DNA of 64,000 bases from positions 337,717 to 401,716 of the forward strand of contig JBDWDN010000009.1 in assembly GCA_039977295.1 (NCBI GenBank), written 5' to 3'. Shown here piece after piece: positions 41,110 to 63,728 of this stretch (positions within the stretch are counted from its first letter, which is position 1; each line of letters starts with the position of its first letter). The DNA is from Hellea sp. GTDB taxonomy: Bacteria > Pseudomonadota > Alphaproteobacteria > Caulobacterales > Maricaulaceae. Both the position numbers and the translations under genes were made by a program. Below the pieces are notes generated by a model. That model saw only the letters and a program-made list of their open reading frames with translations, did not search any database and had not been told where the DNA came from.

Positions 41110-41448
41110 TCATCCGTTGAAATTAGATTTCGCGGCAATATAGCTTTCATAACATAGGCAGTCTTGGCCAGAACATATATTACCATTGCGCTCATGACAG
41201 GTAGTAATCATAGAAAAATACTTTTTCAGCCTATCATCAGGGCCTCTATAATTTATGCAATCAACCATACAAACTCTGGCGGCCCGAAATACCTTCTTCA
41301 TATCATCGTCTGTTTTTGGTTGCTGCTTCACAAAAGAACTATCGTTTGGAGGCAAAGTAAATAGATCAGGAGCAACGCTTGAACAGCATCCACACGTAAG
41401 GCATTCATCTTGCTCTATGAAAACATCACCTTGCTCTTTTTTATGCAT
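41110..41448 (-). CDS. ferredoxin-like protein (single [4Fe-4S]-type Cys cluster) with Cys-rich C-terminal extension
   Basis: DECLTCGCCSSVAP...C pattern resembles divergent mono-cluster ferredoxins. There are more Cys at the C-terminus (CINY...C...CSGQDCLC). Confidence 0.4.
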   Translation of the reverse strand: MHKKEQGDVFIEQDECLTCGCCSSVAPDLFTLPPNDSSFVKQQPKTDDDMKKVFRAARVCMVDCINYRGPDDRLKKYFSMITTCHERNGNICSGQDCLCYESYIAAKSNFNG

Positions 41449-48165: not shown

Positions 48166-48174
48166 GATGCGCCC

Positions 48175-48636
48175 CTATCGACCAAATGGTGAAAGACTGG
48201 ATTTCTTAGGCCCTGTAGCCGCTTCTTCAACAGCGCCGTCCGGCGCTACTATTGAACCGTTGAGAACTCTAAAGGTGCCTGACTCTGTCATGGACTTATT
48301 TACAAATTGTCGCGCGGCATCACCGCGTCCATTATTTAGTCCCATAGGATTGGCTTCAACACGCTCACTCGTCGCGCCTGTCAGTTCCCAATTATAAAGA
48401 CCATCGGCCAAACTACCATTTTGTGAGAGTGACATGAAGGGTGATTGAAACTCAGAAAAACTCTTAGAGTAGTAATCGTTCGGACCTGTGACGGTCATTG
48501 TCATATTAGACATCTTAACAGAAGGGTTTGCCCTAAGGGTGCTTCCGCCAAATGCCGGGTCGGCCGCTAAAGCGCCGCTCGCCGGAAGGAGAAACGCCAT
48601 AGCAGCGGCCCCTATCAGAGTTTTTCGGTATGTCAT
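48175..48636 (-). CDS. small secreted protein (153 aa), co-operonic with the repeat protein
   Basis: Signal peptide with AXA site (ALAADP). 9-bp gap to the downstream gene. Confidence 0.35.
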   Translation of the reverse strand: MTYRKTLIGAAAMAFLLPASGALAADPAFGGSTLRANPSVKMSNMTMTVTGPNDYYSKSFSEFQSPFMSLSQNGSLADGLYNWELTGATSERVEANPMGLNNGRGDAARQFVNKSMTESGTFRVLNGSIVAPDGAVEEAATGPKKSSLSPFGR

Positions 48637-48830: not shown

Positions 48831-48903
48831 AGAGCCCACCCCGTTGCAAGCTTGCTTACTCAATGAGGGTGTGCAAAATAAAAGCCGAGTTTTTAGGCGC
48901 AAT

Positions 48904-51900
48904 ATGACATCATTAATCACAAAGCATAGGGGTTTGAGGTTTCTCCTCGCCCTTGGGCTTTTGATACTCATCACCTATCTTTTCTGGACGTCATCACGCT
49001 ATCCTGCTTTGGATGATAAAGCGATGATGGGCGGTGAAATTCATTTAGAAGATCCGTTAAGTTTTGAAGCGCATTGGACTATTGATCCTAGTTTTCCTGT
49101 TTGGAAGAAAATCCTTCTAACGACTGGCAATTGGTTACACACGAACCGCCAAGGCATGTTTTTTGGTGTCTTGATGGGGGCGATATTTCTGACGTTGATG
49201 CGCTATCTCGGACGCCTTAATTTCAAGAGCGCTTTTATGAATTCGCTATTAGGTATGTTTATTGGCACGCCTTTGGGAGTCTGCGTTAATTGCGCGGCGC
49301 CTATTGCCAAAGGGCTCTATTCTGGGGGCGCTCGCGCCGAAACCATGTTGGCGGCTATGGTCGCCTCGCCTACTCTGAATATTGTTGTCTTGACGATGTT
49401 GTTTAGTATTTTCCCATTCTATATGGCCGTAACAAAGGTCGCGCTATGTATCTTCGTCATACTGGTTATCGTCCCTATTATTTGCCAATTTCTACCAAAG
49501 CATCAGCAGCAATTACCGCTCTCAGAGCAAAGGGTATGCAAGATCCCTGTCCTTGCAAATGGCAGCGAAAACGAAACAATTGGGGCGGCCCTAAAAGGCT
49601 TTAGCCGCGATTTTCTATCAGACTATTGGTATATTTTTAAGCTCACCGTGCCTTTAATGCTGCTCGCGGGCTTCCTTGGGGCTATGGTTGCAACGCTCAT
49701 CCCAATCGAGATGTTAAGCAGCTTAAAATTTGGTGTATTTGGGCTAATCATAATCGCAGTGATTGGCACATTCCTTCCCGTCCCCATCGCATTTGATATT
49801 ATCATTTGCGCCGCATTGCTCGCGGGGGGCTTAGCCGTAGGTTCAGTAATGACCCTGTTATTTACATTGGGCATTTTCAGTATTTATTCGTTTTTTATCG
49901 TCGGGCAATCCGTATCCATTCGGGCCGCTGGCATGCTCTCTCTCGCTATCATAATTATTGGGGTGTCATCCGGATTTTCGGTCGAGACTTGGCATGCAAA
50001 TAAATCCCGTCAAGCCTTGGAAATTTTATCAACGGACGCAGCCCCCCAAGCTCCCACAATCTCTGCGAAAAGGGCCCCCAACATAGATACAGGCGTTTCG
50101 AGCAGCGCTGCGATATCTAAGCTAAACACAAGCGGGTCCGTTATTGAATTGCGCCACAGTGAATTTGCGCCGCGTTCTACCGCCGGGCAGAAACCCTTCA
50201 CAAAATTGGAAGCCTTCACTATTGGACTTGATAAGCCCATCGAATTTACATTTCGCGATATGTGGCCGCCTTTTTGGGAAGGCCGCAGCGTATCAGCTGG
50301 GGATTTTGATAGCGACGGCGATAATGATATCGTTCTCGCATCAACAGAAAAAGGTCTCTATTTTTACAAAAATGACGGCAGCGGAAACTTTGCGTCCTAC
50401 GATGTGCGGTTGGGAGACATCGCCGATTGGCCTATATTTAACGCAGCACTCATCGACTTTAATAATGATGAGGGACTGGATGTCTTTATCGCCACATATG
50501 GGAAAGGTAATTTCATTCTATGGAATGAGAACGGCACATTCTCTCAGGACAGACTAACTCCCGTAGCCAATACGCCCGAAGCCTTATTGTCATTGGCATT
50601 AAGTTTTGGCGACATCGATGGTGACGGCGACATAGATGGGGCGATTGGGAACTGGGCGGCGGGGTGGTATCGCCGCGTACCGGGCGAAGAGTCTCGCAAC
50701 CGCATCATTCGCAATGAAGATGGGCGAATGACGGGAGATAGTTTTTCCGAATTACAAGAACTACCCGGCGAAACCCTGTCTATTCTGCTCAGTGATATCA
50801 ATGATGACCAGTCACTTGATCTATTAGTCGGGAACGACTTTGAGCTTCCGGATATATTTTATTACGGTGTCGGCGACGGCGCGTTTAATCCGATTTCTAA
50901 GGCCGACGACATTATCCCCGTGGCAACAAATACGACGATGGGCATAAAGAGCCATGATTTGGATAATGATCTGATACCCGAAATTTATAGCGTACAAATC
51001 GCTGGCCGCGCCTCAGGAATTTCGCAGCGGCTAAATATGCAGCCCATTGAAAACTACTGCGACGGCATTCAGCAAGCCGATCAGAAAGCTATTTGTCAAA
51101 AAAATATGGATATAAAGACATGGTATAAATCGGGCAATAATTTTGATCCATCTTATGCAGGAAAATGTTTACAGCTTGAGCCTGTCTACCAAGCGCAATG
51201 CAAAGCCATGTTGATTAAAGACCTTGCTATTCAAGCGCAGGACCCGTCAATTTGCGAACTCATTAAAGCCGATCAAGCCGTTGTGCGAAGCTTCTGCGAT
51301 ATACATTTTAAGCCGTCTCCGGTTTTAACCCCAGAAGATTTACGTAACAGCTATCCGCAAATAAAAAAGCGTAATGTTCTCCTAAAACGCGGCAATGATG
51401 GACGTTACACCGACGTGACAGAAACCCATGGACTAGGCGTTGGCGGATGGAGTTGGGATACGAAAATCGCGGATTTCAACAATGATGAATGGCCAGATGT
51501 TTATATTGCAAATGGCACATGGGTGCCCAATGAATTCACCCCGTCCAACATGTTTTATGTGAATGATGGAACTGGAAATTTTTCCGAAATGGCCGCAGAA
51601 TATGGCCTGGAGGATTATCTGATGACCGCGGCCGCCACGCGGCTGGATATGGATCAAGACGGCGATTTAGATATCATCACAATTCCCGTCAATGGTCCGA
51701 TGCAAGCCTATATTAACAACACACAAACCGGCAATGCGATTAGTTTTCGATTGCGCGATGACATAGGCAATAGGTTCGGGCTTGGGGCTAAGATTATTAT
51801 TCATTATGGGCCAGATGGGAAACGCCGCCAAGTCAGAGAAATTCAATCTGGCGGCGGTTTTCAGTCTTTTGACAGTCCAGATGTGCATTTCGGCTTGGGT

Positions 51901-52014
51901 GATTATGATGAAGTCAAACACGTTACTATCAAATGGGTAGATGGTAGCCAGAGCGTCATCACTGAAACCCTTGCTCAGGGCGCGACTTACACGGTGCGCC
52001 GCAAGCGCCCTTAG
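48904..52014 (+). CDS. fusion protein: DUF318 (two-CxxC) permease domain + FG-GAP/VCBS repeats + ASPIC/UnbV domain (second CRTAC1-like protein)
   Basis: The N-terminal ~360 aa are polytopic and contain GVCVNCAAP and AFDIIICAALLAGG, typical of the DUF318 'predicted permease'. The C-terminal ~650 aa have GDFDSDGDNDIVLA, GDIDGDGDIDGAIG, DINDDQSLDLLVGN, DFNNDEWPDVYIANG, DMDQDGDLDII repeats and an UnbV-like end. Track start is a TTG; the first ATG is at 48904. Confidence 0.65.
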   Translation: MTSLITKHRGLRFLLALGLLILITYLFWTSSRYPALDDKAMMGGEIHLEDPLSFEAHWTIDPSFPVWKKILLTTGNWLHTNRQGMFFGVLMGAIFLTLMRYLGRLNFKSAFMNSLLGMFIGTPLGVCVNCAAPIAKGLYSGGARAETMLAAMVASPTLNIVVLTMLFSIFPFYMAVTKVALCIFVILVIVPIICQFLPKHQQQLPLSEQRVCKIPVLANGSENETIGAALKGFSRDFLSDYWYIFKLTVPLMLLAGFLGAMVATLIPIEMLSSLKFGVFGLIIIAVIGTFLPVPIAFDIIICAALLAGGLAVGSVMTLLFTLGIFSIYSFFIVGQSVSIRAAGMLSLAIIIIGVSSGFSVETWHANKSRQALEILSTDAAPQAPTISAKRAPNIDTGVSSSAAISKLNTSGSVIELRHSEFAPRSTAGQKPFTKLEAFTIGLDKPIEFTFRDMWPPFWEGRSVSAGDFDSDGDNDIVLASTEKGLYFYKNDGSGNFASYDVRLGDIADWPIFNAALIDFNNDEGLDVFIATYGKGNFILWNENGTFSQDRLTPVANTPEALLSLALSFGDIDGDGDIDGAIGNWAAGWYRRVPGEESRNRIIRNEDGRMTGDSFSELQELPGETLSILLSDINDDQSLDLLVGNDFELPDIFYYGVGDGAFNPISKADDIIPVATNTTMGIKSHDLDNDLIPEIYSVQIAGRASGISQRLNMQPIENYCDGIQQADQKAICQKNMDIKTWYKSGNNFDPSYAGKCLQLEPVYQAQCKAMLIKDLAIQAQDPSICELIKADQAVVRSFCDIHFKPSPVLTPEDLRNSYPQIKKRNVLLKRGNDGRYTDVTETHGLGVGGWSWDTKIADFNNDEWPDVYIANGTWVPNEFTPSNMFYVNDGTGNFSEMAAEYGLEDYLMTAAATRLDMDQDGDLDIITIPVNGPMQAYINNTQTGNAISFRLRDDIGNRFGLGAKIIIHYGPDGKRRQVREIQSGGGFQSFDSPDVHFGLGDYDEVKHVTIKWVDGSQSVITETLAQGATYTVRRKRP

Positions 52015-53111
52015 GGCATTGGCGTCCAATCGCGGACCATCTTTTGGGCTTCATTTATTTGTCCCGCAGTCATGACGTTCGCAATTTCGGCGCGCGCTTC
52101 ACTGCCATTTTTATGACCTTGCGTGGCTGCCAAATTAATCCACATATATGCAAGGACATAATCCTGCGGCACCCCAACGCCGCCAAAGTAAAGTTGACCC
52201 AAATTATATTGAGCGTCAGGATCTCCGGCCTTTGCCAAAGCTCTAATGTCTTGGAGCGAGTTAGGGGCCTGTGCAGTGTCTTGTCTATTCGCGGTCACCC
52301 CCGATACACCGCCCGCTTTCCTGTACCATCTTTTCGCTTCTTCTTCATCAAGCTTAACGCCAAAGCCATTTTCGTATAAGACGCCCAAATTTGTCATGGC
52401 TGTCGACAATCCATTCTCTGCGGCAAGACGGTACCACTTTGCGGCTATTGAATAGTCTTGATCAACGCCAAGTGCTTTTGTGTAGAGAATCCCTAAGTTA
52501 TTTTGCGCGCGAGCGTTGTTTTGGCCAGCCGCCTTCTCATACCATTTACGGGCCTTTGCATAGTCTTGGGCGGCAGCCTTCCCCTGTTGATATAAAACCC
52601 CAAGACTGACTTGTGATTCCGAATGGCCTTGTTTTGCGGCCAGCTTATATAACCTCACCGACATTCGTGGATCAGCATTTGAAATCAGCTTTTTTTCATG
52701 CAGCAGAGCTAATGAATGCTGAGACAAAGCATCCCCTTGGTCGGCGGATTTTTTAAACCACGTAAAAGCGGTGTCAAAGTTTTGGGCAACGCCCAGGCCA
52801 GATGTATAGAGATCGCCCAATACACGGCCTGCCAAAACGTGACCTTGGATTGCCGCTTTTTTATACCAATAGGCCGCTTGTTCGTAATCTTGCGAGACCC
52901 CTTGCCCATTCAAATATAAACGTGCGAGCCCAGCTTGGGCCTCCATGTCACCGGACGCCGCTAAGGGTTTTAAGCGCGCCAGGAGCTGTTCAAAATCTTG
53001 TTGATTGAGAGCCTCTTGAACGTCTGGCTGCGGCTCGGCGGCGACTGACGGCTGTGCAAGGGAGAGCGCCGTCAATAAGAGGCATGAGCCGGCTATAAGT
53101 TTAACCGTCAT
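52011..53111 (-). CDS. Sel1-repeat (TPR-like) periplasmic protein
   Basis: Signal peptide plus at least seven ~36-aa Sel1 repeats (AQxxLGxxYxxGxGVxQDYxxAxxWYxKAA). Confidence 0.75.
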   Translation of the reverse strand: MTVKLIAGSCLLLTALSLAQPSVAAEPQPDVQEALNQQDFEQLLARLKPLAASGDMEAQAGLARLYLNGQGVSQDYEQAAYWYKKAAIQGHVLAGRVLGDLYTSGLGVAQNFDTAFTWFKKSADQGDALSQHSLALLHEKKLISNADPRMSVRLYKLAAKQGHSESQVSLGVLYQQGKAAAQDYAKARKWYEKAAGQNNARAQNNLGILYTKALGVDQDYSIAAKWYRLAAENGLSTAMTNLGVLYENGFGVKLDEEEAKRWYRKAGGVSGVTANRQDTAQAPNSLQDIRALAKAGDPDAQYNLGQLYFGGVGVPQDYVLAYMWINLAATQGHKNGSEARAEIANVMTAGQINEAQKMVRDWTPMP

Positions 53112-54304
53112 TCGCTCTGATTAGCCTGACGCTCCGTCCAGTTACGCGCATTGGTTTGAGCCTGCGCGATTTGTTCTGGTGTCATTAATTTGCTGTAGAT
53201 TTTGCGATCTTTTATAGCCTCTTTGTTCCCCGATGCCGCTGACAGGTTAAGCCACATATGCGCGGCGATGTAATCCTGCTCAACACCCCTGCCAGTCCCG
53301 TAAGCCCGCCCTAATGCATATTGCGCAGGGCCGTGACCGCTTTCTGCCGCAATGAGATAAAGCTGAGAGGCCATAACATCATCTTGTTTAAGACCGACAC
53401 CCCCAGCATAAAGTCGCCCTAATTTCCAAATGTCCGCCGCGCTTCCCGTTTCGGCCATACGGACATAACGTTCTGCCGCTTGTTCATTCCCCTGCTCTGC
53501 AGCGAGATAAAATAAGTTAGCAGCTTTGGCTGTATCTTTTTCAACATCTTTGCCATGGAAATAGAGAAAGCCGACGACCAATTGGGACTTGTCATAGCCT
53601 TGCTGAGCGGATTTTTCCAAGAGCGCTAAACCTCTTGCCGTATCCGAAGGCATGGCCGCATCTTGTAGCAATTTATACCCGACGATATATTGCGCGCGTT
53701 TATCGCCGCCATCCGCAGCTTTATTGAGCCACCTCAAGCCTTTACCAGTATCTACCGGAACCTCTTGACCTGACATATAAATCATACCGAGCGTATTTTG
53801 CGCTTCTAAATGGCCTTGCTCCGCCGCTTGTTCCATAAAGCGAATGGCCTCTTCCATATTCTTTTCAGCGCCAGATCCGCTCTCTAGCATAAGCCCCGTT
53901 TGAAACTGCGCTTTCGAATAACCCTGTTCTGCAGACTTACGCATCCATGCATAGGCTTCCTTATAATCCTGCGGAACACCTTGGCCGATAATATGCGCCA
54001 TCCCTATGGTATATTGAGCTTCTGGAAGGCGGGATTCTGCGGCCTCCGTTATCCACTTGGCGGCCGTGTTGGCGTCCGGGTCGACCCCTTGGCCTTTTGC
54101 ATACATATTACCGATGAGAAGCTGCGCGGCAGCATTGCCATCATTTGCAATAGGCTCGAGTAATGTCAAAGCCTCAGCATAATTTTGGCTATTATACGCC
54201 TCTTGCGCGGCGACTAAATCGGTGCTTTTTATGTCACTTTGAGAACACCCAGCGCAGAGAAGTGCTGTTATAAAAAGAACTGAAAACCCGCGCCGAAAAC
54301 TCAT
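53108..54304 (-). CDS. Sel1-repeat lipoprotein
   Basis: Lipobox LLCAGCS plus at least eight Sel1 repeats. 4-bp overlap with the downstream Sel1 gene. Confidence 0.75.
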   Translation of the reverse strand: MSFRRGFSVLFITALLCAGCSQSDIKSTDLVAAQEAYNSQNYAEALTLLEPIANDGNAAAQLLIGNMYAKGQGVDPDANTAAKWITEAAESRLPEAQYTIGMAHIIGQGVPQDYKEAYAWMRKSAEQGYSKAQFQTGLMLESGSGAEKNMEEAIRFMEQAAEQGHLEAQNTLGMIYMSGQEVPVDTGKGLRWLNKAADGGDKRAQYIVGYKLLQDAAMPSDTARGLALLEKSAQQGYDKSQLVVGFLYFHGKDVEKDTAKAANLFYLAAEQGNEQAAERYVRMAETGSAADIWKLGRLYAGGVGLKQDDVMASQLYLIAAESGHGPAQYALGRAYGTGRGVEQDYIAAHMWLNLSAASGNKEAIKDRKIYSKLMTPEQIAQAQTNARNWTERQANQSE

Positions 54305-54314
54305 ATAATCTCCC

Positions 54315-55364
54315 TTAAGCGGATTTAATGGCGGCTTCGCTCATGAGAGCGTTCGCAGCGTAAAACTCTTCTTTGCGGGCGCTATCCACCAATTTGAGGA
54401 ACGCGTCCTTATCAACCCTCTTGCCATCATGAAGCACATAATCAACAGGCCCTTGCCCCGGAAACAAAACATCCATGTAAGAATTCATACGGCACATCGT
54501 TCGCGTATTGCCTTCTTTAACGTCTGTAGGTCTTGCATGCATGGTGATGTTTTGGTCCATAAATACGATCTCACCATCGACCCAATCATGATGATAAATA
54601 TGCTCTGGTTTATTGATTAAGTTCCATAAATGCTGACGATATTTCAGGCTGTCCTCGCGGCTCATTCCCCGGAATTTTTTGAAACTATGGCTTGGGAATT
54701 TTATGCCTTTTACCCCTGTCACCGTTTCGGCCAGTAAGGGACAGTCCATATCTGAAAGGGGCGCCGTTCCGTAATGCAGCACATCTCTTTGAGAGGAAAT
54801 GAGGTCTTTACTCATTTTGCCGCCATCCCATTCCGAAACCGTTATAAGTTCATCGACCATTGTTTTATCTTCCATTGGTAATGACGCATAGGCATTCGCC
54901 GTGCAAAGGAAGGAGGTCCGGCTACCTGCGGTGTCCCACAAACTCATTAAGCCCACGACCCGCTGTTTGTCGTCAAATGATTGCTGGTCGCAATGCCAAT
55001 CTAGTGACCCATTAGTAAAAAATCCTGTTGGCTTACCCTTAGAGTTTTTCTCGAAACTGACCCGCGCAATACCTAACCGGTTAGCAAAATGATCCGTTGC
55101 TTTAGTTGTATAGCCCAGATGCAGTTGAATATTGCGCCAATGCCGCCCTGACATTTTGCGCGACATCAATGCCCGGAAAATGAAGGCCGTACAGGGCTGT
55201 CCCCATAGGTTTTGAATATCAAATAATCTCTGCTCGGTGACGCCTTGCTTAACAACAACAACGCATTTACTGGCCACCAATCTCCCTAAGTCTCGGCATT
55301 GGTCATCATCCTGAAGGTCTATTTCCGTGACTTCTGTTCTATTGCTATAGCTTGTTATTTTCAT
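54315..55364 (-). CDS. Fe(II)/2-oxoglutarate-dependent dioxygenase, TauD/TfdA-like
   Basis: WHCD (HxD) and a downstream His (ITMHARP) in a TauD-like spacing; 349 aa. Confidence 0.55.
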   Translation of the reverse strand: MKITSYSNRTEVTEIDLQDDDQCRDLGRLVASKCVVVVKQGVTEQRLFDIQNLWGQPCTAFIFRALMSRKMSGRHWRNIQLHLGYTTKATDHFANRLGIARVSFEKNSKGKPTGFFTNGSLDWHCDQQSFDDKQRVVGLMSLWDTAGSRTSFLCTANAYASLPMEDKTMVDELITVSEWDGGKMSKDLISSQRDVLHYGTAPLSDMDCPLLAETVTGVKGIKFPSHSFKKFRGMSREDSLKYRQHLWNLINKPEHIYHHDWVDGEIVFMDQNITMHARPTDVKEGNTRTMCRMNSYMDVLFPGQGPVDYVLHDGKRVDKDAFLKLVDSARKEEFYAANALMSEAAIKSA

Positions 55365-56500
55365 AGCACGGTGCCCACATCTTGAGCTTCCATTTTATTT
55401 ACAATATCAATCGGCATGTAAAGCCGCATCCAATGCTCAAAAACGGCAATCCATTTTTCAAACTTATCGAGATTTCTGAGGTCTTTATGCAGCACAATAT
55501 ATGAGCCAAGCCCCATGGCATAAGCCTTACAGTCACTACAATCGATATTTGGAGAACAACATTTCCCTTGGTGTTCTTGTTGCTCTACATCGAAATGATT
55601 AAACTTTGCGTTCAATCGATTTCCGCAATTCGTAGCAACACCATTCGCGTCTAAATCATATAATGGCTCATCTTGCGCAATCCAGTCATCATAATGACGC
55701 TCATAGATGACAGTATCAGGGTAAGCCTCTATAGCGGCATCAATTTGCTTGCGCGCCGCGATAAAGTCTGAAGGTTGCATGCGCAGATTTTCGTCTGGTG
55801 TTGACGTAAAAATATAAGCGTCTGAATGCTCCTCGCCGCGTAGACGTTTCATATAATCGACCGTCGCGGAAAAATAACTAAATGTCAGCGGCAGACCAAA
55901 TTCAGCGCATTGCGCGACAACATTTGGGATTTGTTCTATATTTTGATTGCTAATGGTCATGACCATTACGGCCCGAGGGTCGTTTTGATAATTACGCATG
56001 GCTTTTGTAGTCGTATCCGCGCCGCGATATTTCGCAACATTATCCTTATCACCCCAAATTGAAATATGAATACGATAAGGAATTGACCTATCGATACGTT
56101 TGATTCCATTGGTCATAATGATACCGGCAGGAATATGCTTTGCAGCGGCTGCGATGCGGGCTGGCTCCAATGAAGGTTCAGCACCTCCTATATAAGCGAA
56201 ATTAACGCCGCGCTTCGCTTCACTGGCAAAGAAGACGTCCCAGCTTTTATCGTCTGCAGTATCGTCGTAAACTTCAAACTCTCCGCCTGCAAAGTATAAG
56301 CACCCTTCGCAGAATAGATTGCATCTGTTCGAAATATCGTAATTGCTACCAAAATTGCGTCCATGCAAAGCACGAAGCCATTTATATTTTGCCATCAAAA
56401 CCGTACGCCGTTGCGCTGTTGATGACATTTTTACTGCGGACTCCCGCGTCATAATCTGTTCAATAGTCATTGCATGCCCCTGCACCCTATGCGGCGACAT
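55361..56500 (-). CDS. radical SAM enzyme with C-terminal Cys-rich (SPASM/twitch-like) region
   Basis: CNLFCEGC (CxxxCxxC), GGAEP SAM-binding motif, and a C-terminal cluster CGN...CCSPNIDCSDC. 4-bp overlap with the TauD-like gene. Confidence 0.7.
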   Translation of the reverse strand: MSPHRVQGHAMTIEQIMTRESAVKMSSTAQRRTVLMAKYKWLRALHGRNFGSNYDISNRCNLFCEGCLYFAGGEFEVYDDTADDKSWDVFFASEAKRGVNFAYIGGAEPSLEPARIAAAAKHIPAGIIMTNGIKRIDRSIPYRIHISIWGDKDNVAKYRGADTTTKAMRNYQNDPRAVMVMTISNQNIEQIPNVVAQCAEFGLPLTFSYFSATVDYMKRLRGEEHSDAYIFTSTPDENLRMQPSDFIAARKQIDAAIEAYPDTVIYERHYDDWIAQDEPLYDLDANGVATNCGNRLNAKFNHFDVEQQEHQGKCCSPNIDCSDCKAYAMGLGSYIVLHKDLRNLDKFEKWIAVFEHWMRLYMPIDIVNKMEAQDVGTVL

Positions 56501-56704
56501 TAATATAATAAAGGTTACTATGATATAAAAAAGTGCGGGCTCAAAAAAAAAGCATAGTGTTGTTCTTATTTCAAAACACAGAGCATCGAAACACGATATT
56601 CTCGAGCGCTATGCCGCATTGTTAGACATCGGCCTTTAGGCACTTAAGATATTATAGAACCCATCTTGCTATCTTTTACCAAAACCATTGACTGAATTTC
56701 GTGT

Positions 56705-58189
56705 TTGACCATAACACCTTCCATGTCATTTGCGTCCTATGATTTCCTCTTCATGTTCCTGCCCTTGGCAGTTTTGTTTACATGGCTAGCGCTCTCTATA
56801 AATGCCAACCGGTTATTGATCCCTACGATTATCATCACCTCAATCATATTCTACGGCTACACATCTTTCCCGCATCTACTACTACTCTTAGTTTTGATAA
56901 TATTGACGTGGCTCATGGGCGTCATTTATTCTAAATCTGGGAACCCGGCCTTAGGGAAACTCGCCATAGCTATCGGTGTTTTGAGCAATCTTTCTTCGCT
57001 CCTCGTTTGGAAATATGGCACATCCATCATAGAAACTTGGAATCAGATTGGATGGATCCAGGCAACAGATCCAGGCTTAATAATGCCGCTAGGAATTTCA
57101 TTCTACGCCTTGCAGATGATTGGGTTTCTATTGGATTTACAAAGAGGCAAGACGACAACAAGTCCTCTTCCCAGCTTTGCCGCTTTTGTGCTTTTCTTCC
57201 CTCAATTACTCGCAGGACCTATCGTCTCTCATAAACGTATGATGCTCGAATTTGGTAAGTCCCGCACAAATCTTTCAATGGATCAACGCGTTGACATGGC
57301 CTCACTCGGGATAGCTTGGATTGCTATCGGATTATTCAAAAAGGCCGTTATTGCAGATAGCCTCGCGAGAATTACCATCCCCTTGATTGTCGGTGCATCC
57401 GCCAATGATTTAACGATGATCGAAGCCTGGCAGATTGTTCTATCGAGCGGCCCGCGGCTTTATTTTGATTTTTCTGGCTATTGCGATATGGCCGTCGGCA
57501 TCGGCCTACTCTTTGGCATTTCCCTGCCTCATAATTTTAACGCCCCCGGCCGCTGGGCAACCATCACAGATGGCTGGCGGCGATGGCATATCACCTTCCA
57601 CAATTTCTTACGCGATCATGTTTATAGGAATTTAAAAAACCGTTTCGGAGCCTCGCGACTGGGCTTAGGTGTTTCAACATTGATCGTTTTTCTAATTTCC
57701 GCTTTATGGCACGGTAACAATTTGTTCTTTTTAGTTTGGGGGCTGCTCTGCGGCATTTCGTGGGTTATTCTTACGTCTCTGCTCTCGCTGCCGAACTCGC
57801 GCTACAAGGCCATAGCGCAAAAATCTTTAGTCGGGCTATTGTATCTATTCATGCCCTTAATTTTTGTTGTTCCAGACATGAATATTGCGATGTTTGTTGT
57901 GAGTCAGTTAATCGCATTTGATCAATTACCAAACAACCTCTTGTCATTTGAAGCGCAAGGCGGATGGTATCTTGGCGTTATCATCGTCATTATTATTTAC
58001 TTCATCTCAGAGATATCGACTCAAATTTTACTGTCTAACAAATTTGATCATCGAGACCGCACGATATTTGGGCTTCGGCCTCCAGTCTGGGTCCCTGATG
58101 TCAAATGGGCTGTTTTCATTTTGTTACTTTTAGTGATAGCGTTCTACTTTGTTGGCAAAAGTCCACCATTCGTATATTTTAAGTTTTAA
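56705..58189 (+). CDS. MBOAT-family membrane O-acyltransferase (AlgI/DltB/PatA-like)
   Basis: 494 aa, ~10 TM helices, conserved MBOAT His in ISALWHGNN. A TTGACT-17-ATAACA promoter-like element lies upstream. Confidence 0.8.
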   Translation: MTITPSMSFASYDFLFMFLPLAVLFTWLALSINANRLLIPTIIITSIIFYGYTSFPHLLLLLVLIILTWLMGVIYSKSGNPALGKLAIAIGVLSNLSSLLVWKYGTSIIETWNQIGWIQATDPGLIMPLGISFYALQMIGFLLDLQRGKTTTSPLPSFAAFVLFFPQLLAGPIVSHKRMMLEFGKSRTNLSMDQRVDMASLGIAWIAIGLFKKAVIADSLARITIPLIVGASANDLTMIEAWQIVLSSGPRLYFDFSGYCDMAVGIGLLFGISLPHNFNAPGRWATITDGWRRWHITFHNFLRDHVYRNLKNRFGASRLGLGVSTLIVFLISALWHGNNLFFLVWGLLCGISWVILTSLLSLPNSRYKAIAQKSLVGLLYLFMPLIFVVPDMNIAMFVVSQLIAFDQLPNNLLSFEAQGGWYLGVIIVIIIYFISEISTQILLSNKFDHRDRTIFGLRPPVWVPDVKWAVFILLLLVIAFYFVGKSPPFVYFKF

Positions 58190-58193
58190 CACC

Positions 58194-59282
58194 ATGCAGA
58201 AAAAAACTAAGCCTCTTCTCTTCCTTTTCTTCTTTATTGCCATAATTTGGCCTCTGAGCTTTCTGTTGTTCAGAGCTAAATCACCGGAAGACAAAAAAGT
58301 ATCCGACATCGTCGCAAGCCAGGCTTTTTTATCAACATTGCAAAATAAAGATGCAGAGGCCTGTATTGCGATGACCTATATGGACAGCGTCGATGTTATT
58401 ATCTTAGGCAGTTCCGTAGCCTATTCCAACATAGACCCCGTCATATTACCAACGCACTTCGGAGGGCAATCCGTCGCCGTCTGCGCTCTACCAGGATGGA
58501 ACACAGAGTTTTTTGATATGTTCTTTAAGTATTTGGAGGAAAACAATATCGCGCCAAGCCGTATAGTTTGGCTGGCTGACGGCGCTAGTCATTTGAAATT
58601 TAGTGTTCACGAAAAACGCATAGAGAACGCCAAGAGAGCCTTCTTCGACGATGAGTTTCGCAATAAAACAGCAGGGCGCTGGATTGAAAACTTCGAGCTC
58701 GAAAGTCAGTCAAAGGATGCGATAAACGCCTATGACCAACGCATTTCATATCATTCAGGCCAGTTCTCTGATTTAAAGCCTGAAGATGTTACCCAAATAA
58801 TTTTAGAGACTGAGTTCAATTCTGAAACCGCAGCGGCGACAATTTCAAAGACCATAAAACCCGTTCCAGGCAATAAGAAGAAATTGCAAAAATTATGCGC
58901 CAATATTGTTCAGAGAAATATCATTCTGGACGTCATTGTTACGCCAACCCCAACAACATCCGACGATATTTTCACAGACTTTGGTGATGATGGTGAGGCT
59001 TCGACAGAAAAATCGATGGCGGGTTATTACGCCGAGAACATTGGATGTGTTCGATCTGTAATTTCAGATTCTTTAGAAAGTTGGGGATTGGATAATCGTT
59101 ACTTTTTAAATAGACGCCTAAAAGATGACTATCCTTACGACCTCTGGAAAGACCCCGCATCTTTTGGCGCTCAATACGACACCTTTAGCACATTGGAAAA
59201 AAGAAACTTCTACGACACAATCCATTTGAATGGTATCGGCGCAGTAATTTTCACAGAGGAATTGGCCAAGCGCCTAAGGTAA
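58194..59282 (+). CDS. MBOAT-partner protein, DltD/AlgJ-like (N-terminal TM anchor + extracytoplasmic hydrolase-like domain)
   Basis: The ATG at 58194 immediately follows the MBOAT stop. TM anchor, then a GSSVAYSN block resembling the DltD serine motif. Confidence 0.45.
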   Translation: MQKKTKPLLFLFFFIAIIWPLSFLLFRAKSPEDKKVSDIVASQAFLSTLQNKDAEACIAMTYMDSVDVIILGSSVAYSNIDPVILPTHFGGQSVAVCALPGWNTEFFDMFFKYLEENNIAPSRIVWLADGASHLKFSVHEKRIENAKRAFFDDEFRNKTAGRWIENFELESQSKDAINAYDQRISYHSGQFSDLKPEDVTQIILETEFNSETAAATISKTIKPVPGNKKKLQKLCANIVQRNIILDVIVTPTPTTSDDIFTDFGDDGEASTEKSMAGYYAENIGCVRSVISDSLESWGLDNRYFLNRRLKDDYPYDLWKDPASFGAQYDTFSTLEKRNFYDTIHLNGIGAVIFTEELAKRLR

Positions 59283-59672
59283 GCCTCCAATAAATTTGAG
59301 CTCTCGCGCCAAGAATAGCTTATGCTTTGGCTCCAACATTTGATTTTGATTCAATGCGATAAGTTGCGTCTCTGATATATTTCCACATTCGACTAAAAAC
59401 CCAATTGCCCAGCTCTTGAGCCCGGCATCCGTTTCTAGGTCTGCGAGTTTTAAATAAACCCTGACGTCAGCATCTGATATAGGTGAGCCCTGTCGGTCTT
59501 TGAAAAACTTTTCGTAAAACTGCATTCGAATATGCTCTGCATCTGGATCGGGCAGCCGCGCATATTGTGTTTCAACAAAGGTTTGATCCACGATATTCGC
59601 GGTGGTCCATTTTTCATGGAGGCCAAGATCATGTAGCATCTCTTTTAGACAGGAGATCACAAAGCCTCCCAC
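59274..59672 (-). CDS. small hypothetical protein (132 aa), first gene of low-GC small-gene array
   Basis: No known motif; overlaps its neighbour. Confidence 0.35.
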   Translation of the reverse strand: MGGFVISCLKEMLHDLGLHEKWTTANIVDQTFVETQYARLPDPDAEHIRMQFYEKFFKDRQGSPISDADVRVYLKLADLETDAGLKSWAIGFLVECGNISETQLIALNQNQMLEPKHKLFLARELKFIGGLP

Positions 59673-59947
59673 TCAAAACGCGTGTTCCAACGATAAAGAT
59701 GATCATCACCCTTATGCTTTTCCAAAATATTGAGGGTTACCATATTTTCAAGCAGATCGAACAACATGTTCCCTAAAGGATTTTCCGTCCAAAATATCCA
59801 TTTTTTGTCGCCAAAACTATAAATGCTTTCGCCGTCTGAGGGAGGCGGAATGATCCCTAAGGCCGCGCCTGCGTGAAACGCCGCAACATCTATTTCAGTC
59901 CATGTTTCCAAAGATTGTCTCAAACCCTGCATAGCCACATTTTTCAC
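59657..59947 (-). CDS. small hypothetical protein (96 aa), immunity-protein-like size
   Basis: Tightly packed in the array; no known motif. Confidence 0.3.
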   Translation of the reverse strand: MKNVAMQGLRQSLETWTEIDVAAFHAGAALGIIPPPSDGESIYSFGDKKWIFWTENPLGNMLFDLLENMVTLNILEKHKGDDHLYRWNTRFEWEAL

Positions 59948-59949
59948 CC

Positions 59950-60486
59950 TTAAGAGTCTCGCTCTAGATATTTAAGAAATAAGTCCCGCGTCGTGCCCCA
60001 GCCGAATTTATCGCGTCTACTGGCGATGTCTGCCATTTCTTGAAAGATTGAGATAACATCAATCCCTTTCGCTGTGCCGCTAGCATGATAGGCACTTAAT
60101 GCGAGTAAAGCGTCGCGCGTATCTTTGCCTTGATCGTCAATGACAAAGAGGATCATATGTTTGCGAAGACCGTCTGGCGTATTAGGATCGGCCTTTAATA
60201 CTGCAGAGTATATCAAGGCGTCATTTTTATACATCAAGTCGATAATGTGTTGACGTTGATCGGGCGTATAAAATTCAAACTGGTCAACAATCTCCTTAAA
60301 CAATGTTTCAACGGCGCCGCGCAGTCCCGCCTCATCAACGGGGTGCGGTCTATTAAAAATTTGCTCTTCCCAATCTGGAGCGTTCATATCAATTTCAACA
60401 TTGATAATGGGCGCGAGCTGTTGATTGAGAAAGGCAGCTCGCCGTTCCCAATCCTCAAAAGCGCTTTGGAATGATTTATGAGTCAT
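59950..60486 (-). CDS. hypothetical protein (178 aa)
   Basis: No known motif; 2-bp gap to its neighbour. Confidence 0.35.
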   Translation of the reverse strand: MTHKSFQSAFEDWERRAAFLNQQLAPIINVEIDMNAPDWEEQIFNRPHPVDEAGLRGAVETLFKEIVDQFEFYTPDQRQHIIDLMYKNDALIYSAVLKADPNTPDGLRKHMILFVIDDQGKDTRDALLALSAYHASGTAKGIDVISIFQEMADIASRRDKFGWGTTRDLFLKYLERDS

Positions 60487-60521
60487 GAGCGGCCAATTCA
60501 GTTATCTGCTCATAGCAATTA

Positions 60522-60851
60522 TTATAGCGCCTGAACATTACCGCTCCCGACGCTCTTGGAGCCTTCTTTAATAACAAAAGAAACGCCCGGTAATAAGCCC
60601 GCGTAATCCACATTTCTATATGGGAGTTTCACGTCAACCTTAATATCCGTATTGAACGCGATTACATCATCGCATCTTATAAATTGGACACCTAAATATT
60701 CCTTGTTCGGGTCATCATCTATAACCAAATGCGGCCTATACTGCCCGCCATCAAACTCTGGCAAAACAGACCTGCCATTCTCTTCAGCGGAATAAAATTT
60801 AACGACTAATTTCATAGAATTATGAGATATAGAACTTCTTACATTTTCCAA
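60522..60851 (-). CDS. small hypothetical protein (109 aa)
   Basis: Low GC (~41%). Confidence 0.3.
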   Translation of the reverse strand: MENVRSSISHNSMKLVVKFYSAEENGRSVLPEFDGGQYRPHLVIDDDPNKEYLGVQFIRCDDVIAFNTDIKVDVKLPYRNVDYAGLLPGVSFVIKEGSKSVGSGNVQAL

Positions 60852-61215
60852 TAATTTCTAAACACTCATGTTCTGAAAAATCTTCCATAAACATTATATC
60901 CATAGTTACGACGCCCGCACATGATTTCGCTAAACTCGCGATAAAATCATCTTTGGAAAAATCAGACTGAATTATGAGAGCTAAACGGACATTCTCATTG
61001 TCTGCATATCGTAACATTGACAAATAGGCTCCGCGAACAGCTGAAACAGTTTCTAACCTTTCGGATATATCGTTTTCCAACCTCTCAGTGTCTTCTCCAA
61101 ATGGCGACCCCAAGAACTCCATTCTATCTGATTGCTCTTTGACGACTTTATACTTTTTCTTACGGAATATGTTCTTAAGCATATCAACCCCTTCAATTGC
61201 AGCTCCGGCAAACAA
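60820..61215 (-). CDS. small hypothetical protein (131 aa)
   Basis: Overlaps downstream gene by 32 nt; no known motif. Confidence 0.3.
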   Translation of the reverse strand: MFAGAAIEGVDMLKNIFRKKKYKVVKEQSDRMEFLGSPFGEDTERLENDISERLETVSAVRGAYLSMLRYADNENVRLALIIQSDFSKDDFIASLAKSCAGVVTMDIMFMEDFSEHECLEIIGKCKKFYIS

Positions 61216-61318
61216 TAAACTTTATACGGTTCTATTGCTCACTGTCCTATGTTCCTCCCATATAGAGTTATGTTTGCGCCCAAATTATGTCTTTTCAGTC
61301 TAACTCTAATTCTTTCTC

Positions 61319-61711
61319 TTACCATTCATAACCTACGATCCTAATACCCTCTTCATAGACCTGAATGGGCCATAGCCCAGCCGTGTTGAGGAGCTCAACC
61401 AAGGCCTGAATATCATTCGAGACATTAGCGGTTGAAATGTCTGATTTTGAGATTTGTAAGAATTCAATATGCGCGAATAGAGCATAGGATATTCCGCCAC
61501 ATTCCCCGAAATCATCATCGCTCTCAAAACTTGGCCCAGGCACAGCGACGCTAAAAATGCGGTCTTGATTGACGAACTTAATACCCACCTCACGGAGAGG
61601 CGGCGCGGCAGCATGGAGTACCGCGAATAGTTTTCGCCACTTTGCATTACTCATATGCTTCACGCTGGCACTGGCTACGCGGCGCTCTAGGCGTCTGTCT
61701 ATCTCATTCAT
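61319..61711 (-). CDS. small hypothetical protein (130 aa)
   Basis: No known motif. Confidence 0.3.
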   Translation of the reverse strand: MNEIDRRLERRVASASVKHMSNAKWRKLFAVLHAAAPPLREVGIKFVNQDRIFSVAVPGPSFESDDDFGECGGISYALFAHIEFLQISKSDISTANVSNDIQALVELLNTAGLWPIQVYEEGIRIVGYEW

Positions 61712-61753
61712 GCTACTTACCGTGTTGATTAGTGATGATGGCTTTCGATGAAT

Positions 61754-62233
61754 TCACCAAACTATAATCTCCTCAACGTCAAAATTTAGATCAAATTGAA
61801 GGGACAACTCCATATCAGGGATATAGTTTGGAGACGCCCAAAAGAGGCATCCTCCATTTTCAAAAAACATCACTTTTCTCAATCTAAGATCTTCACTCAA
61901 ACCTTTGGCATCACCCCCAACCTCTTGACCGATGGGACCAAAGGCCGCCGATGTGACTCTCGTCCCCAAGACATCTCTAAAGCTTGAGATAATATCCTCG
62001 GACAAATTCATAAAAATTTTTTCGCATATTGTAACAGTCTTTAACCATTGATCCCTTGTCGCGTTTTCAATTTCGGCTTGTATCATGACGCTGATATCAG
62101 ATTTTGAGATCTCACACCTTCCTTCTAGAATATCAGTCGAGGCAGGGTTTAACGGGCCAAAGACCTCAGATTGAATGTGGTCGATATTTGTCTTCATAAG
62201 ACTAAAAATCCCTATGCTTAAAAGGGCCCGCAA
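61754..62233 (-). CDS. hypothetical protein (159 aa)
   Basis: No known motif. Confidence 0.3.
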   Translation of the reverse strand: MRALLSIGIFSLMKTNIDHIQSEVFGPLNPASTDILEGRCEISKSDISVMIQAEIENATRDQWLKTVTICEKIFMNLSEDIISSFRDVLGTRVTSAAFGPIGQEVGGDAKGLSEDLRLRKVMFFENGGCLFWASPNYIPDMELSLQFDLNFDVEEIIVW

Positions 62234-62251
62234 TTTCGCGCCAAACTCTAC

Positions 62252-62542
62252 TCATAGAGCTTGCGCAGATCTTGTAATCTTAAGTCTGTCATCTCTATAG
62301 AGACGCCAAGCGGACTGTGCCTTTTGCAAAGTTTCGGTTATAGATTTTTGTGAAACTAAGTAGTCTTCATAATACCCCCGCTCAATTTTACCTACAGTGC
62401 TTTGATAGGTTTCCATTAGGGCGGCATCAGCTTTTTCATATTTCCCTTGAGCCGCGCAGAGGGCCTCGCCGAGATCACAGCCTTCTTGAGCAAAGCAACT
62501 CACCGGAGCTAATGAGAATAATGCAATAAGAAATATCTTCAT
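62252..62542 (-). CDS. LprI-like (DUF1311) periplasmic protein, putative lysozyme-inhibitor family
   Basis: Signal peptide with Cys pairs and the C-terminal LQKAQSAWRLYRDD motif typical of the DUF1311 helix bundle. Confidence 0.5.
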   Translation of the reverse strand: MKIFLIALFSLAPVSCFAQEGCDLGEALCAAQGKYEKADAALMETYQSTVGKIERGYYEDYLVSQKSITETLQKAQSAWRLYRDDRLKITRSAQAL

Positions 62543-62818
62543 AGGATGGCCTTTTTAGACTTTCTCATGATAGTCTCCATTACCGCATAGAGGCGAAAAA
62601 GACACGGTGCTAACACTGTTTTCATTTCACGCGCCGGGTTTCGATTTTTGTGTTCTCTTTTAACCGCAGCTGTCGTGAGAGCTCTGTCAATATCGCGGGA
62701 CGCTTTTGCCCGTTCAGTTCGTCAATCAATTGGTCTGGGCGATGACGGTAGATGTCGCCCCAGAACTTTCGAGCAAGCTTATTCCATACTCTCCAAGTCC
62801 CATCGGGTTGAGCTTTTC

Positions 62819-63283
62819 CTACGTATCGTCTGGACGGTTTTGTAATGATGTTGCCTCCCTTGAAAGCTTTAGTGTTTTAAGATGGTTATCATAATCTAAA
62901 TCGTGAGCGGATTTGCATAAAAGACATTGCCCTCTTTGATGCGTCTTTTGGTGTCCAGAAGAGGACGCTGTCTTAGTTTGACAATGCGGGAAGTTAGAGA
63001 AGCCATCATAAATGCCGCCTACATCTAGAACCTTCTGGACAGTCCCTCTGGCTTTGCAGCTTCGACAGCATAGCTCCAAATAGCGATAAGCAAAAATCTC
63101 AGCATAATTTCTCTCGGAAAAACCCTTTTTGAATTTATATCCCTTTTCTCGCCTTAAGAATAATCGATATGGAAGGGCGGGACACACATCTTGGGTCTTG
63201 CAGGTTTTGATAATAAAAAGTGGACCGGCCTCACCTTCGGTAACGTGGGACCGTTTCATGCCCTCTTGACCTGGGCGGGTCAT
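62819..63283 (-). CDS. HNH-like endonuclease-domain protein
   Basis: Two CxxC knuckles (CCRSC ... CLLCKSAH) flank His-rich HQKTHQ and GGIYDG segments in an HNH-like arrangement; moderate certainty. Confidence 0.4.
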   Translation of the reverse strand: MTRPGQEGMKRSHVTEGEAGPLFIIKTCKTQDVCPALPYRLFLRREKGYKFKKGFSERNYAEIFAYRYLELCCRSCKARGTVQKVLDVGGIYDGFSNFPHCQTKTASSSGHQKTHQRGQCLLCKSAHDLDYDNHLKTLKLSREATSLQNRPDDT

Positions 63284-63311
63284 CCCGCGACGTTTATGTT
63301 TGTTTCGATGA

Positions 63312-63728
63312 CTAATTTTCTAATCCGAGCTTCGTTCCGCACCACGGGCAAAAGTTAATCCCGGCACTATTAAGATACCAGGTGCCATATGATCCCCTGC
63401 CCGTTTTAAATTCCAGATCTATTTCGGGAATAGCGCCATCAACAGTTTTGAACATATTCATGCAGCAATAGTGACTAGATTTTTCTAACATTTTCTGCCG
63501 TGCCGGATTCAGAGATTCTGACCATTTTGCGCAGACTTCACACTCTGATACATGCTTCACATAGCTTAGAAATTTCTCATCCGCATCCGGAATAAGGCTT
63601 ATTATTAAACCTCTATCGAATTCTGCGAGTCCTGATAGGATCATCGCTAAGGGATCACCAATATCGGCGCCGCCATAAAGGGAAAGCACCTTAGCGGCAA
63701 TGTCATCTTGAACAGAATTGCATTTCAT
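63312..63728 (-). CDS. small Cys-pair protein (138 aa; CEVC ... CPWC zinc-ribbon-like)
   Basis: Two CxxC pairs ~60 aa apart; no other motif. Confidence 0.3.
   Translation of the reverse strand: MKCNSVQDDIAAKVLSLYGGADIGDPLAMILSGLAEFDRGLIISLIPDADEKFLSYVKHVSECEVCAKWSESLNPARQKMLEKSSHYCCMNMFKTVDGAIPEIDLEFKTGRGSYGTWYLNSAGINFCPWCGTKLGLEN

Follow-up and report, generated by a model that had tools for sequence, protein, structure and literature searches.

A 64-kb stretch of DNA from the alphaproteobacterium Hellea sp. (contig JBDWDN010000009.1, positions 337,717 to 401,716; the whole of this stretch is referred to below as the window) contains a locus of six open reading frames (ORFs) spanning approximately 7.3 kb. 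Four minus-strand genes, encoding a radical S-adenosylmethionine (SAM) protein, a TauD-like dioxygenase, and two Sel1-repeat proteins (Sel1A and Sel1B), diverge from a plus-strand pair encoding an MBOAT-family membrane O-acyltransferase and a DltD-like SGNH protein. The question raised by this locus is whether the two operons work together and, if so, what a radical SAM enzyme contributes to an acyltransferase pair. Comparison across genomes indicates that the radical SAM protein is very probably functionally coupled to the acyl relay encoded beside it, and the most informative clue to its function is that members of its family pair with acyltransferases of four folds.

We collected 80 genome loci with a profile of the radical SAM protein and further loci by exact-protein look-ups (both cited below by L numbers). 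The radical SAM, MBOAT, and SGNH genes form a trio that is shared by alpha-, beta-, and gammaproteobacteria and occurs in five or more gene orders. The divergent arrangement of the window recurs in L081, which is fully syntenic, and in L082-L084 and L087. Five Janthinobacterium genomes and two metagenome contigs carry an operon of overlapping genes in the order radical SAM-MBOAT-SGNH, to which L089 adds MdoG. In Erythrobacteraceae, among them the completely sequenced Paraurantiacibacter namhicola, the order is P450-MBOAT-SGNH-radical SAM-TauD; in Brevundimonas-type loci it is P450-MBOAT-SGNH-radical SAM with a convergent gene for a B12 radical SAM enzyme, and in L027 the MBOAT gene precedes the radical SAM gene, with the SGNH gene 6 kb off. 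In a reciprocal search starting from the SGNH protein, every homolog with usable flanking context was located in such a trio. The gene combination exceeds chance and recurs in the three proteobacterial classes, and the claim of the original prediction that the two divergent operons belong together, against which a lack of conserved linkage would have counted, is borne out. Carriers that are isolated strains with sequenced genomes include Janthinobacterium species, P. namhicola, Blastomonas marina, and Brevundimonas poindexterae.

The window radical SAM protein has its closest relatives (86% identity) in L082 (1-9500), L083, and L084, where the SGNH-MBOAT and radical SAM-TauD pairs adjoin the gene of a DUF3363 relaxase and that of an S26 peptidase resembling TraF. 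A frameshifted remnant of the Sel1A gene, followed by ThiF, Coq4, and RoxA-like genes, lies downstream. This unit of four genes looks horizontally mobile, and since its context in these loci is otherwise unrelated to that of the window and Sel1A has decayed there, the core of the system is the trio.

A recognizable acyl-transfer partner was found near the radical SAM gene in 49 of the 80 loci, namely a protein combining TPR repeats with an alpha/beta-hydrolase (19 loci), an MBOAT protein (14), a VexE-like LPLAT protein (11), or a GNAT or short LPLAT protein (5). Three further members of the family, picked solely by the length of their contigs, were likewise accompanied, one by a TPR-hydrolase and two by GNAT proteins (3/3). 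The VexE-like partners consist of TPR repeats followed by a C-terminal LPLAT domain; they reach 22.5 bits with the Pfam Lip_A_acyltrans model (cut-off 22.3), match the NCBIfam VexE model across the catalytic region with E values of 5e-13 to 1e-15, and contain an invariant histidine and aspartate 64 residues apart, comparable to H466 and D532 of VexE. The TPR-hydrolase partners carry a lipase-like domain with a GxSxG motif. In a neighbor-joining tree of the radical SAM proteins, MBOAT-SGNH and VexE-like partners are exchanged in two separate pairs of sister clades, with the accessory enzymes unchanged: between the window clade and Algimonas, both with TauD, and between the Erythrobacter/Brevundimonas clade and L034, L053, L070, L071, L074, and L078, both with P450 and the B12 radical SAM enzyme. 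This is non-orthologous displacement of the acyltransferase, and it speaks for acyl transfer being integral to the role of the radical SAM protein.

The radical SAM protein itself belongs to a small, unnamed family, represented by only 137 clusters at E<=1e-30 in a profile search of 1.84 billion representative sequences; most database members of the family are annotated as hypothetical proteins. Its CxxxCxxC motif (C60, C64, and C67 in the numbering of the 379-residue ORF) is invariant in sets of 20 and 62 homologs, its SAM-binding motif is GGAEPS, and its C-terminal cysteines are arranged as C292...C314-C315-x5-C321-x2-C324, with C292 near-invariant. Judging from their number, the C-terminal cysteines would suffice for one auxiliary cluster, not two, and the protein may be described as twitch-like. 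The earlier description of a CxxxCxxC protein with a C-terminal cysteine cluster stands; the protein is not a full SPASM enzyme, the single cluster being different from the seven-cysteine motif. The structure predicted from 62 homologs (predicted local distance difference test score 92.7, predicted template-modeling score 0.90) has the partial TIM-barrel fold of radical SAM enzymes and a single long N-terminal helix, with no domain resembling the recognition element (RRE) of RiPPs (peptides synthesized ribosomally and then modified post-translationally). Its nearest structures include SkfB, anSME, SuiB, ChlB, BlsE, BtrN, viperin, MoaA, and DesII, at template-modeling scores of approximately 0.5 and 13-18% identity; at the sequence level, the only match in the PDB was SkfB (E 0.004). 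No Pfam model, PF04055 included, matched the protein at E<=0.01, and precomputed matches to PF04055 exist for only 14 of 117 homologs; this reflects divergence and does not count against the radical SAM fold. Searches of 62 family members against NCBIfam gave sub-threshold matches to many radical SAM families and no equivalog.

The plus-strand pair can be placed with more precision. The MBOAT domain (Pfam, 107.8 bits) contains the expected histidine motifs, RRWHITFHNFLRDH and SALWHG (also listed as RRWHITFHNF and SALWHG), and the best-scoring NCBIfam model is DltB, at 140 bits and below its cut-off of 375 bits. The protein ends in FVYFKF, which fits the FxYxxF acyl-shuttle hexapeptide. This hexapeptide bears the acyl-tyrosine intermediate in PatA and is fused to the MBOAT protein in acetyl-transferring MBOAT-SGNH systems, whereas in the Dlt system it resides on the microprotein DltX (Anderson et al., PMC12148441). 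All 19 radical SAM-linked MBOAT proteins scanned terminate in FxYxxF (FVYFKF, FLYFNF, FKYAGF, FFYFKF, and others), as do two found later (FVYFRF and FIYFQF). The SGNH partner has only seven homologs in 5.8 billion sequences and matches no Pfam or NCBIfam model, that of DltD included; it is nearest to DltD and SGNH enzymes, and its best structural match is DltD. Alignment with the Erythrobacteraceae/Brevundimonas and Janthinobacterium partners, which likewise lack annotation, revealed that G72, S74, D341, H344, and N346 are invariant, giving a Ser/Asp/His set made up of the block I serine and the block V DxxH motif, and that every partner has an N-terminal hydrophobic anchor. From the MBOAT histidines, the FxYxxF terminus, and the Ser/Asp/His partner, we conclude that the pair is, in all likelihood, a PatA/PatB-type acyl relay, and the general reading of the locus as a modification system for an extracytoplasmic molecule agrees with such a pair.

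The accessory genes are less constant. TauD (60.2 bits in Pfam, cut-off 27 bits) retains an intact iron triad, with H124-x-D126, H276, and R288 invariant in nine orthologs, and has only remote similarity to TauD/TfdA enzymes of solved structure (best E 2e-4); its gene adjoins that of the radical SAM protein in three different locus types and is present in some lineages only. Sel1A and Sel1B contain six Sel1 repeats each (Pfam, 191 and 200 bits). Judged by eye, the signal peptide of Sel1A includes a lipobox-like sequence, LLCAGC, and that of Sel1B is cleavable. Their matches to AlgK, MotX, ExoR, and MerG are weak and confined to the repeats. The Sel1A gene is intact in L081 and a frameshifted remnant in L082-L084, and Sel1B was found among close relatives in L081 only. 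TauD is therefore a frequent accessory, and the Sel1 genes can be dispensed with and are confined to particular lineages; the six genes that the original prediction took as the unit give way to a conserved core of three, with TauD patchy and Sel1A decayed in the closest mobile copies.

Several characterized systems resemble parts of this locus. The closest counterparts of the relay are PatA/PatB, AlgI/AlgJ/AlgX, and WssH/WssI, which share with it the MBOAT histidines, the fused C-terminal FxYxxF, a Gram-negative host, and an SGNH-type partner that is anchored in the membrane, carries Ser/Asp/His residues, and is encoded by a gene of its own alongside. The window SGNH protein differs in being fast-evolving, DltD-like, and outside the reach of any Pfam or NCBIfam model; the window pair is invariably linked to a radical SAM gene and often to TauD, P450, or the B12 radical SAM enzyme, which the known systems lack, and no alginate, cellulose, or peptidoglycan genes lie beside it. 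Alginate acetylation (AlgI/J/F/X with AlgK) was ruled out, as there are no alg genes and the two Sel1 proteins score 67.5 and 58 bits with the AlgK model, against a cut-off of 700 bits. A periplasmic Sel1-repeat lipoprotein encoded with an MBOAT/SGNH pair recalls AlgK-type scaffolds; the window, however, lacks porin and synthase genes, and its Sel1 genes are lost or decayed in close relatives. The Dlt system (DltA/B/C/D/X) is comparable in that the MBOAT proteins score best with the DltB model, the SGNH protein is structurally closest to DltD, and a non-acetyl group is carried from a thioester donor through a tyrosine shuttle, as in the model proposed below, but in the window the shuttle motif forms part of the MBOAT protein instead of residing on a microprotein, and the host is a Gram-negative alphaproteobacterium. 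Membership in the Dlt system was excluded by the absence of DltA, DltC, and DltX, the DltB score, and the lack of a DltD match. With VexE, the common features are the TPR-LPLAT protein that replaces MBOAT-SGNH beside the radical SAM gene in sister clades (with TauD in Algimonas) and the same His...Asp spacing; in contrast, the window has no VexE-like gene, the similarity is remote (48-57 bits, cut-off 1200 bits), and the Vi locus has no radical SAM gene. Finally, the radical SAM protein shares with the SPASM/twitch enzymes SkfB, anSME, SuiB, BlsE, and BtrN the partial TIM barrel, CxxxCxxC, and a cysteine-rich C-terminal extension, and differs from them in its low identity, its single C...CC-x5-C-x2-C cluster, and the absence of an RRE.

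What the radical SAM protein acts on may be approached through the acyl donor. A cytoplasmic thioester is the sole species within reach of the cytoplasmic GNAT, LPLAT, and hydrolase partners and of MBOAT alike, and DltB, which the MBOAT proteins resemble, is supplied with its acyl group by a carrier protein. VexE depends strictly on acyl-ACP (ACP, acyl carrier protein) and moves a beta-hydroxyacyl group from ACP to C-6 of UDP-N-acetylglucosamine (PMC9597891). In L076 (8976-11223), genes for a GNAT-like and a radical SAM protein are followed by one for a dedicated 85-residue PP-binding-like carrier protein with a DSL motif, and in L095 (3854-7023) a TPR-alpha/beta-hydrolase gene diverges from that of a PP-binding protein, which is followed by a TauD ortholog, with no radical SAM gene within 6 kb. 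In L077, the gene directly upstream of P450-MBOAT-SGNH-radical SAM, on the same strand, encodes a fatty acyl-AMP ligase, which exceeds the cut-off at 873 bits. In 10 other MBOAT loci (among them L013, L014, L016, L017, L019, L060, L062, L068, and L094), such a ligase is a few kb off with housekeeping genes between, so that it counts as supporting evidence only. For these reasons, namely the reach of the thioester, the ACP dependence of VexE, the resemblance to DltB, the carriers in L076 and L095, and the ligase in L077, we tentatively favor tailoring on the donor side.

The best model at present, which we likewise put forward tentatively, is that the radical SAM protein and TauD, both C-H-activating enzymes of the cytoplasm, tailor a thioester-bound acyl donor and the relay transfers the product to an envelope glycan or glycolipid. 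In the cytoplasm, the radical SAM protein would remove a hydrogen from an acyl or aminoacyl group bound as a thioester, which TauD would hydroxylate, and the group delivered would be a tailored one (e.g., by hydroxylation or radical rearrangement) instead of simple acetate. By analogy with PatA/PatB and DltB/X/D, the MBOAT histidine would then catalyze transfer from the cytoplasmic thioester to the C-terminal tyrosine at the periplasmic face, and Ser74 of the SGNH protein would take up the group and pass it to a hydroxyl of the envelope acceptor. More speculatively, Sel1A and Sel1B could scaffold the periplasmic step in the window lineage, as AlgK does in the alginate machinery. Whether tailoring takes place on the donor or the acceptor, a glycan or glycolipid at the surface or in the periplasm is the most likely acceptor.

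Several observations weigh against this model. The window and most other loci encode neither a carrier protein nor an acyl-activating enzyme, and a search of all loci found dedicated carriers in L076 and L095 only and none in MBOAT-type loci. No glycan or polysaccharide synthase is encoded in the neighboring 26-46 kb. To our knowledge, the characterized bacterial MBOAT-SGNH pairs all move acetate or, in the case of Dlt, D-alanine, and a tailored donor would be unprecedented. The nearest radical SAM structures include the peptide and protein maturases SkfB, anSME, and SuiB, besides BlsE, viperin, and MoaA; the TauD clade also occurs alone (L096), and the Brevundimonas module is part of a single co-directional run with a lasso-type peptide cluster. 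In addition, a 330-residue partner encoded in 10 gammaproteobacterial loci could not be placed in any fold class, has no Pfam, NCBIfam, or PDB profile match, and gave a negative result when compared with a GNAT partner using hhalign.

Genes of glycan metabolism were observed near several family members, a context that also counts in favor of the best model. MdoG follows the trio in L089 (4135-5652), CysNC, a glycosyltransferase, and a KpsC/S-type Capsule_synth protein follow TPR-hydrolase-radical SAM in L090 (6156-11071), a large methyltransferase and RgpF follow radical SAM-GNAT in L091 (6968-10328), and sequences resembling sulfotransferases and a glycosyltransferase, recognized by eye, surround the radical SAM-TPR-hydrolase pair of Alteromonas alba (L018:1226-7285).

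If tailoring took place on the acceptor instead, the radical SAM protein and TauD would act in the cytoplasm on a precursor of the acceptor, which could be a nucleotide sugar or a lipid-linked glycan building block. They might, for example, introduce a hydroxyl or produce a deoxy or keto sugar, and an ordinary acetyl or acyl group would then be added at the new site, in the cytoplasm by the VexE-like and GNAT partners and after export by MBOAT-SGNH. The glycan genes beside several family members speak for such a scheme, as does the presence of BlsE, viperin, MoaA, and DesII among the nearest folds. Both of the best-understood partner types O-acylate sugars, VexE at C-6 of UDP-N-acetylglucosamine (PMC9597891) and PatB at C-6 of N-acetylmuramic acid (PMC12148441), and known MBOAT-SGNH pairs use plain acetyl-CoA (PMC12148441). 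Nevertheless, the minimal units of two or three genes contain no glycosyltransferase or flippase, the carriers beside radical SAM (L076) and TauD (L095) genes and the ligase upstream in L077 point to the thioester, and it is hard to explain why four acyltransferase folds in two compartments should all need one modified acceptor. We consider acceptor-side tailoring plausible, though less likely than tailoring of the donor.

A peptide substrate is improbable as the general case. Here, the radical SAM protein, TauD, P450, and the B12 radical SAM enzyme would tailor a ribosomal peptide encoded elsewhere, which MBOAT-SGNH would acylate after export; eukaryotic MBOAT proteins that acylate secreted peptides offer a precedent, whereas we know of no bacterial MBOAT-SGNH pair that acts on peptides. 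The RiPP maturases SkfB, SuiB, and ChlB, together with anSME, are among the top structural matches, the recurrent oxygenases (TauD, JmjC/cupin, P450) are of kinds used on peptides, and the TPR partners could bind peptides. The most direct indication comes from L065 (135-11086), L069 (228-11137), and L079, which has the same order, where the P450-MBOAT-SGNH-radical SAM module ends a co-directional lasso-type run on one strand, with genes overlapping or separated by gaps mostly below 40 bp, encoding PqqD (Pfam, 6e-18), a candidate precursor, an Asn-synthase-like protein, an ABC exporter, NTP_transf_5, and a Transglut_core3 protease; PqqD and the candidate precursor were seen in L065 and L069, and L079 was scored on the remaining cluster genes. 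The candidate precursors (L069:573-818 and L065:537-692) share a leader of the form WxAPxLxRLD...T-x and a core of nine residues, GxDxxxSAS. Positions 7-9 of this core offer no acidic residue with which a canonical lasso ring could be closed. We take these loci to indicate that a peptide pathway can recruit the cassette, as in the Brevundimonas lineage, and not to reveal its general function.

The remaining loci argue against peptides. Clustering of approximately 9,100 small ORFs from 87 loci returned only alternative frames of large genes and no conserved precursor near the radical SAM gene, and a regular expression for lasso leaders matched L065 and L069 only, which confines the motif to the Brevundimonas lineage. 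Six-frame reading of the window leader and its alignment with L081 and L082 revealed no conserved ORF, in agreement with the original prediction, which had seen no precursor there. Most loci are units of two or three genes with neither protease nor exporter, and L077 has the fatty acyl-AMP ligase in place of lasso-type genes. On the three precursor searches (ORF clustering, leader expression, and leader alignment), the RiPP reading was rejected for the window locus; the RiPP-like peptide that had been offered as one option finds no support there, with no conserved small ORF and a radical SAM protein that has no RRE.

Oxygenases of other types were noted in L040 (7024-12526), a Thermodesulfobacteriota metagenome-assembled genome, where the radical SAM gene is flanked by genes for a JmjC/Cupin_8 oxygenase and a Rieske oxygenase. 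The same contig encodes an ABC exporter very similar (740 bits) to that of the Brevundimonas lasso cluster, and a protein from L080 (Spirochaetota) clusters with the L040 cupin oxygenase.

It is very improbable that the radical SAM protein is a maturase that post-translationally activates the neighboring acyltransferase, as anSME does with sulfatases. The constant presence of a catalytic partner beside the radical SAM gene and the rank of anSME among the three best structural matches are what this proposal would lead one to expect, but partners of four unrelated folds offer no common target sequence, and the accessory oxygenases and methylases suggest tailoring of small molecules or side chains. 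The anSME-type model TIGR03942 matched only 7 of the 62 members, weakly (best E 1.6e-5), and no sulfatase was seen beside the radical SAM gene in the window or the loci inspected. Membership in the anSME family was thus ruled out, with no equivalog-level match and no sulfatase partner. The most improbable explanation, that the two operons are unrelated neighbors and the radical SAM protein and TauD serve an unrelated cytoplasmic pathway, is largely refuted, since, even if a divergent layout alone is no proof of co-function and the TauD clade can stand alone, the trio persists in its many gene orders, overlapping-gene operons included, moves as a unit into a mobile-element context, and accounts for every SGNH homolog with usable flanks.

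MBOAT-SGNH relays are the main bacterial route for acylating cell-wall and matrix polymers, and the modifications they introduce govern biofilm properties and immune recognition as well as resistance to lysozyme and antimicrobial peptides. A relay invariably tied to a radical SAM enzyme implies novelty at the bacterial surface, either in the acyl group or in the chemistry of the acceptor, and the radical SAM-coupled relay has a real chance of representing new chemistry. Literature searches on radical SAM enzymes with MBOAT, DltD, or SGNH proteins, and on lasso peptide tailoring with acyltransferases, returned no description of this linkage; while MBOAT-SGNH relays are known, the radical SAM-coupled relay and a radical SAM family with interchangeable acyltransferases are absent from the searchable literature. 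The comparative pattern provides the first functional context for this uncharacterized family, whose members are mostly annotated as hypothetical and missed by Pfam. A broader proposal, which we regard as less likely than not, is that the family defines a new class of envelope modification in which a non-acetyl acyl or aminoacyl group tailored by the radical SAM protein is transferred by interchangeable acyltransferases (MBOAT-SGNH, VexE-like, GNAT, or TPR-lipase-like) to surface glycans or glycolipids, with the Brevundimonas cassette acylating an exported lasso-like peptide; if true, the latter would be the first bacterial MBOAT protein acting on a peptide.

The features of the locus are listed in Table 1. 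All six ORFs of the original prediction were found where it had placed them, and its gene identities were upheld, with Pfam matches for TauD, both Sel1 proteins, and MBOAT and with three start codons shifted after comparison with homolog alignments. The radical SAM protein most likely starts, on alignment evidence, at ATG 56470 instead of 56500. The MBOAT start is ATG 56723 (MSFASYDF...) in place of TTG 56705, and that of the SGNH protein is ATG 58194, 4 nt past the MBOAT stop, in an ORF that itself opens at TTG 58149. Moving the first two starts sets the extent of the divergent intergenic region.

Table 1. Annotated features of the locus, with coordinates counted from the first nucleotide of the window.
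Feature	Coordinates	Strand	Remarks
Sel1B, secreted Sel1-repeat protein, paralog of Sel1A	52011..53111	-	Pfam Sel1 1.5e-60
Sel1A, Sel1-repeat lipoprotein	53108..54304	-	Pfam Sel1 ~1e-58 to 1e-57
TauD/TfdA-family Fe(II)/2-oxoglutarate dioxygenase	54315..55364	-	Pfam TauD 4e-16
Radical SAM protein, unnamed family	55361..56470	-	369 aa from most likely start; ORF reaches 56500
Divergent intergenic region, common to both operons	56471..56722		252 bp, GC 0.39
MBOAT-family membrane O-acyltransferase	56723..58189	+	488 aa; Pfam MBOAT 9e-31
Membrane-anchored SGNH/DltD-like acyltransferase, partner of MBOAT	58194..59282	+	362 aa

The tight coupling described for the four minus-strand genes is evident from their junctions: ATGA overlaps join radical SAM to TauD (55361-55364) and Sel1A to Sel1B (53108-53111), and TauD and Sel1A are separated by a 10-nt gap with a GGAG-like spacer (TAA - GGGAG - ATG). 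The lower-GC block of the original prediction was confirmed in part: GC is modestly low in the radical SAM (0.44), MBOAT (0.44), and SGNH (0.425) genes; TauD stands at 0.46, but the Sel1 genes reach 0.50, so that the block and the gene set do not coincide. The GC content of the 4.7 kb downstream is 0.43 and the mean of the window 0.467. A scan for promoters and terminators gave nothing above shuffled expectation, and a megablast search of the 7.3-kb locus against a plasmid collection returned no match.

Beyond Sel1B, at 48844-52014 (+), lies a gene for a 1056-residue protein in which an ArsP/SO_0444-type permease is fused to FG-GAP/VCBS repeats and an ASPIC/UnbV domain; it is convergent with the Sel1B gene and overlaps its end by 4 bp. 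It was set aside as a cluster member, since the syntenic L081 alone keeps the linkage. In Pseudomonas L046, too, a protein with a weak FG-GAP match precedes the radical SAM protein. Two secreted proteins of 436 and 153 residues, encoded at 46855-48636 (-) and without Pfam or NCBIfam matches, are 86% and 79% identical to proteins encoded beside the FG-GAP fusion in L081. On the other side of the locus, 59274-63728 (-) contains approximately ten small genes (96-178 aa, GC 0.43), mostly without Pfam matches, with an LprI-like gene at 62252-62542 and weak matches to SseB_C and DUF6678; at least three of these genes are kept in L081, which has a longer run of small genes beyond SGNH.

Farther away, an Rfam scan of the whole window found no element in the divergent region, its sole match being a tRNA gene at 32943-33012 (+). 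This gene overlaps the annotated start of a 725-residue ORF (32992-35169, no Pfam match), and that start is therefore probably wrong. A few kb upstream of the locus are genes encoding a MavL-family macrodomain protein (39984-41195, -; Pfam, 1e-127) and a protein with a Tle1-like phospholipase domain of the type VI secretion system (45135-46340, -; 3e-77).

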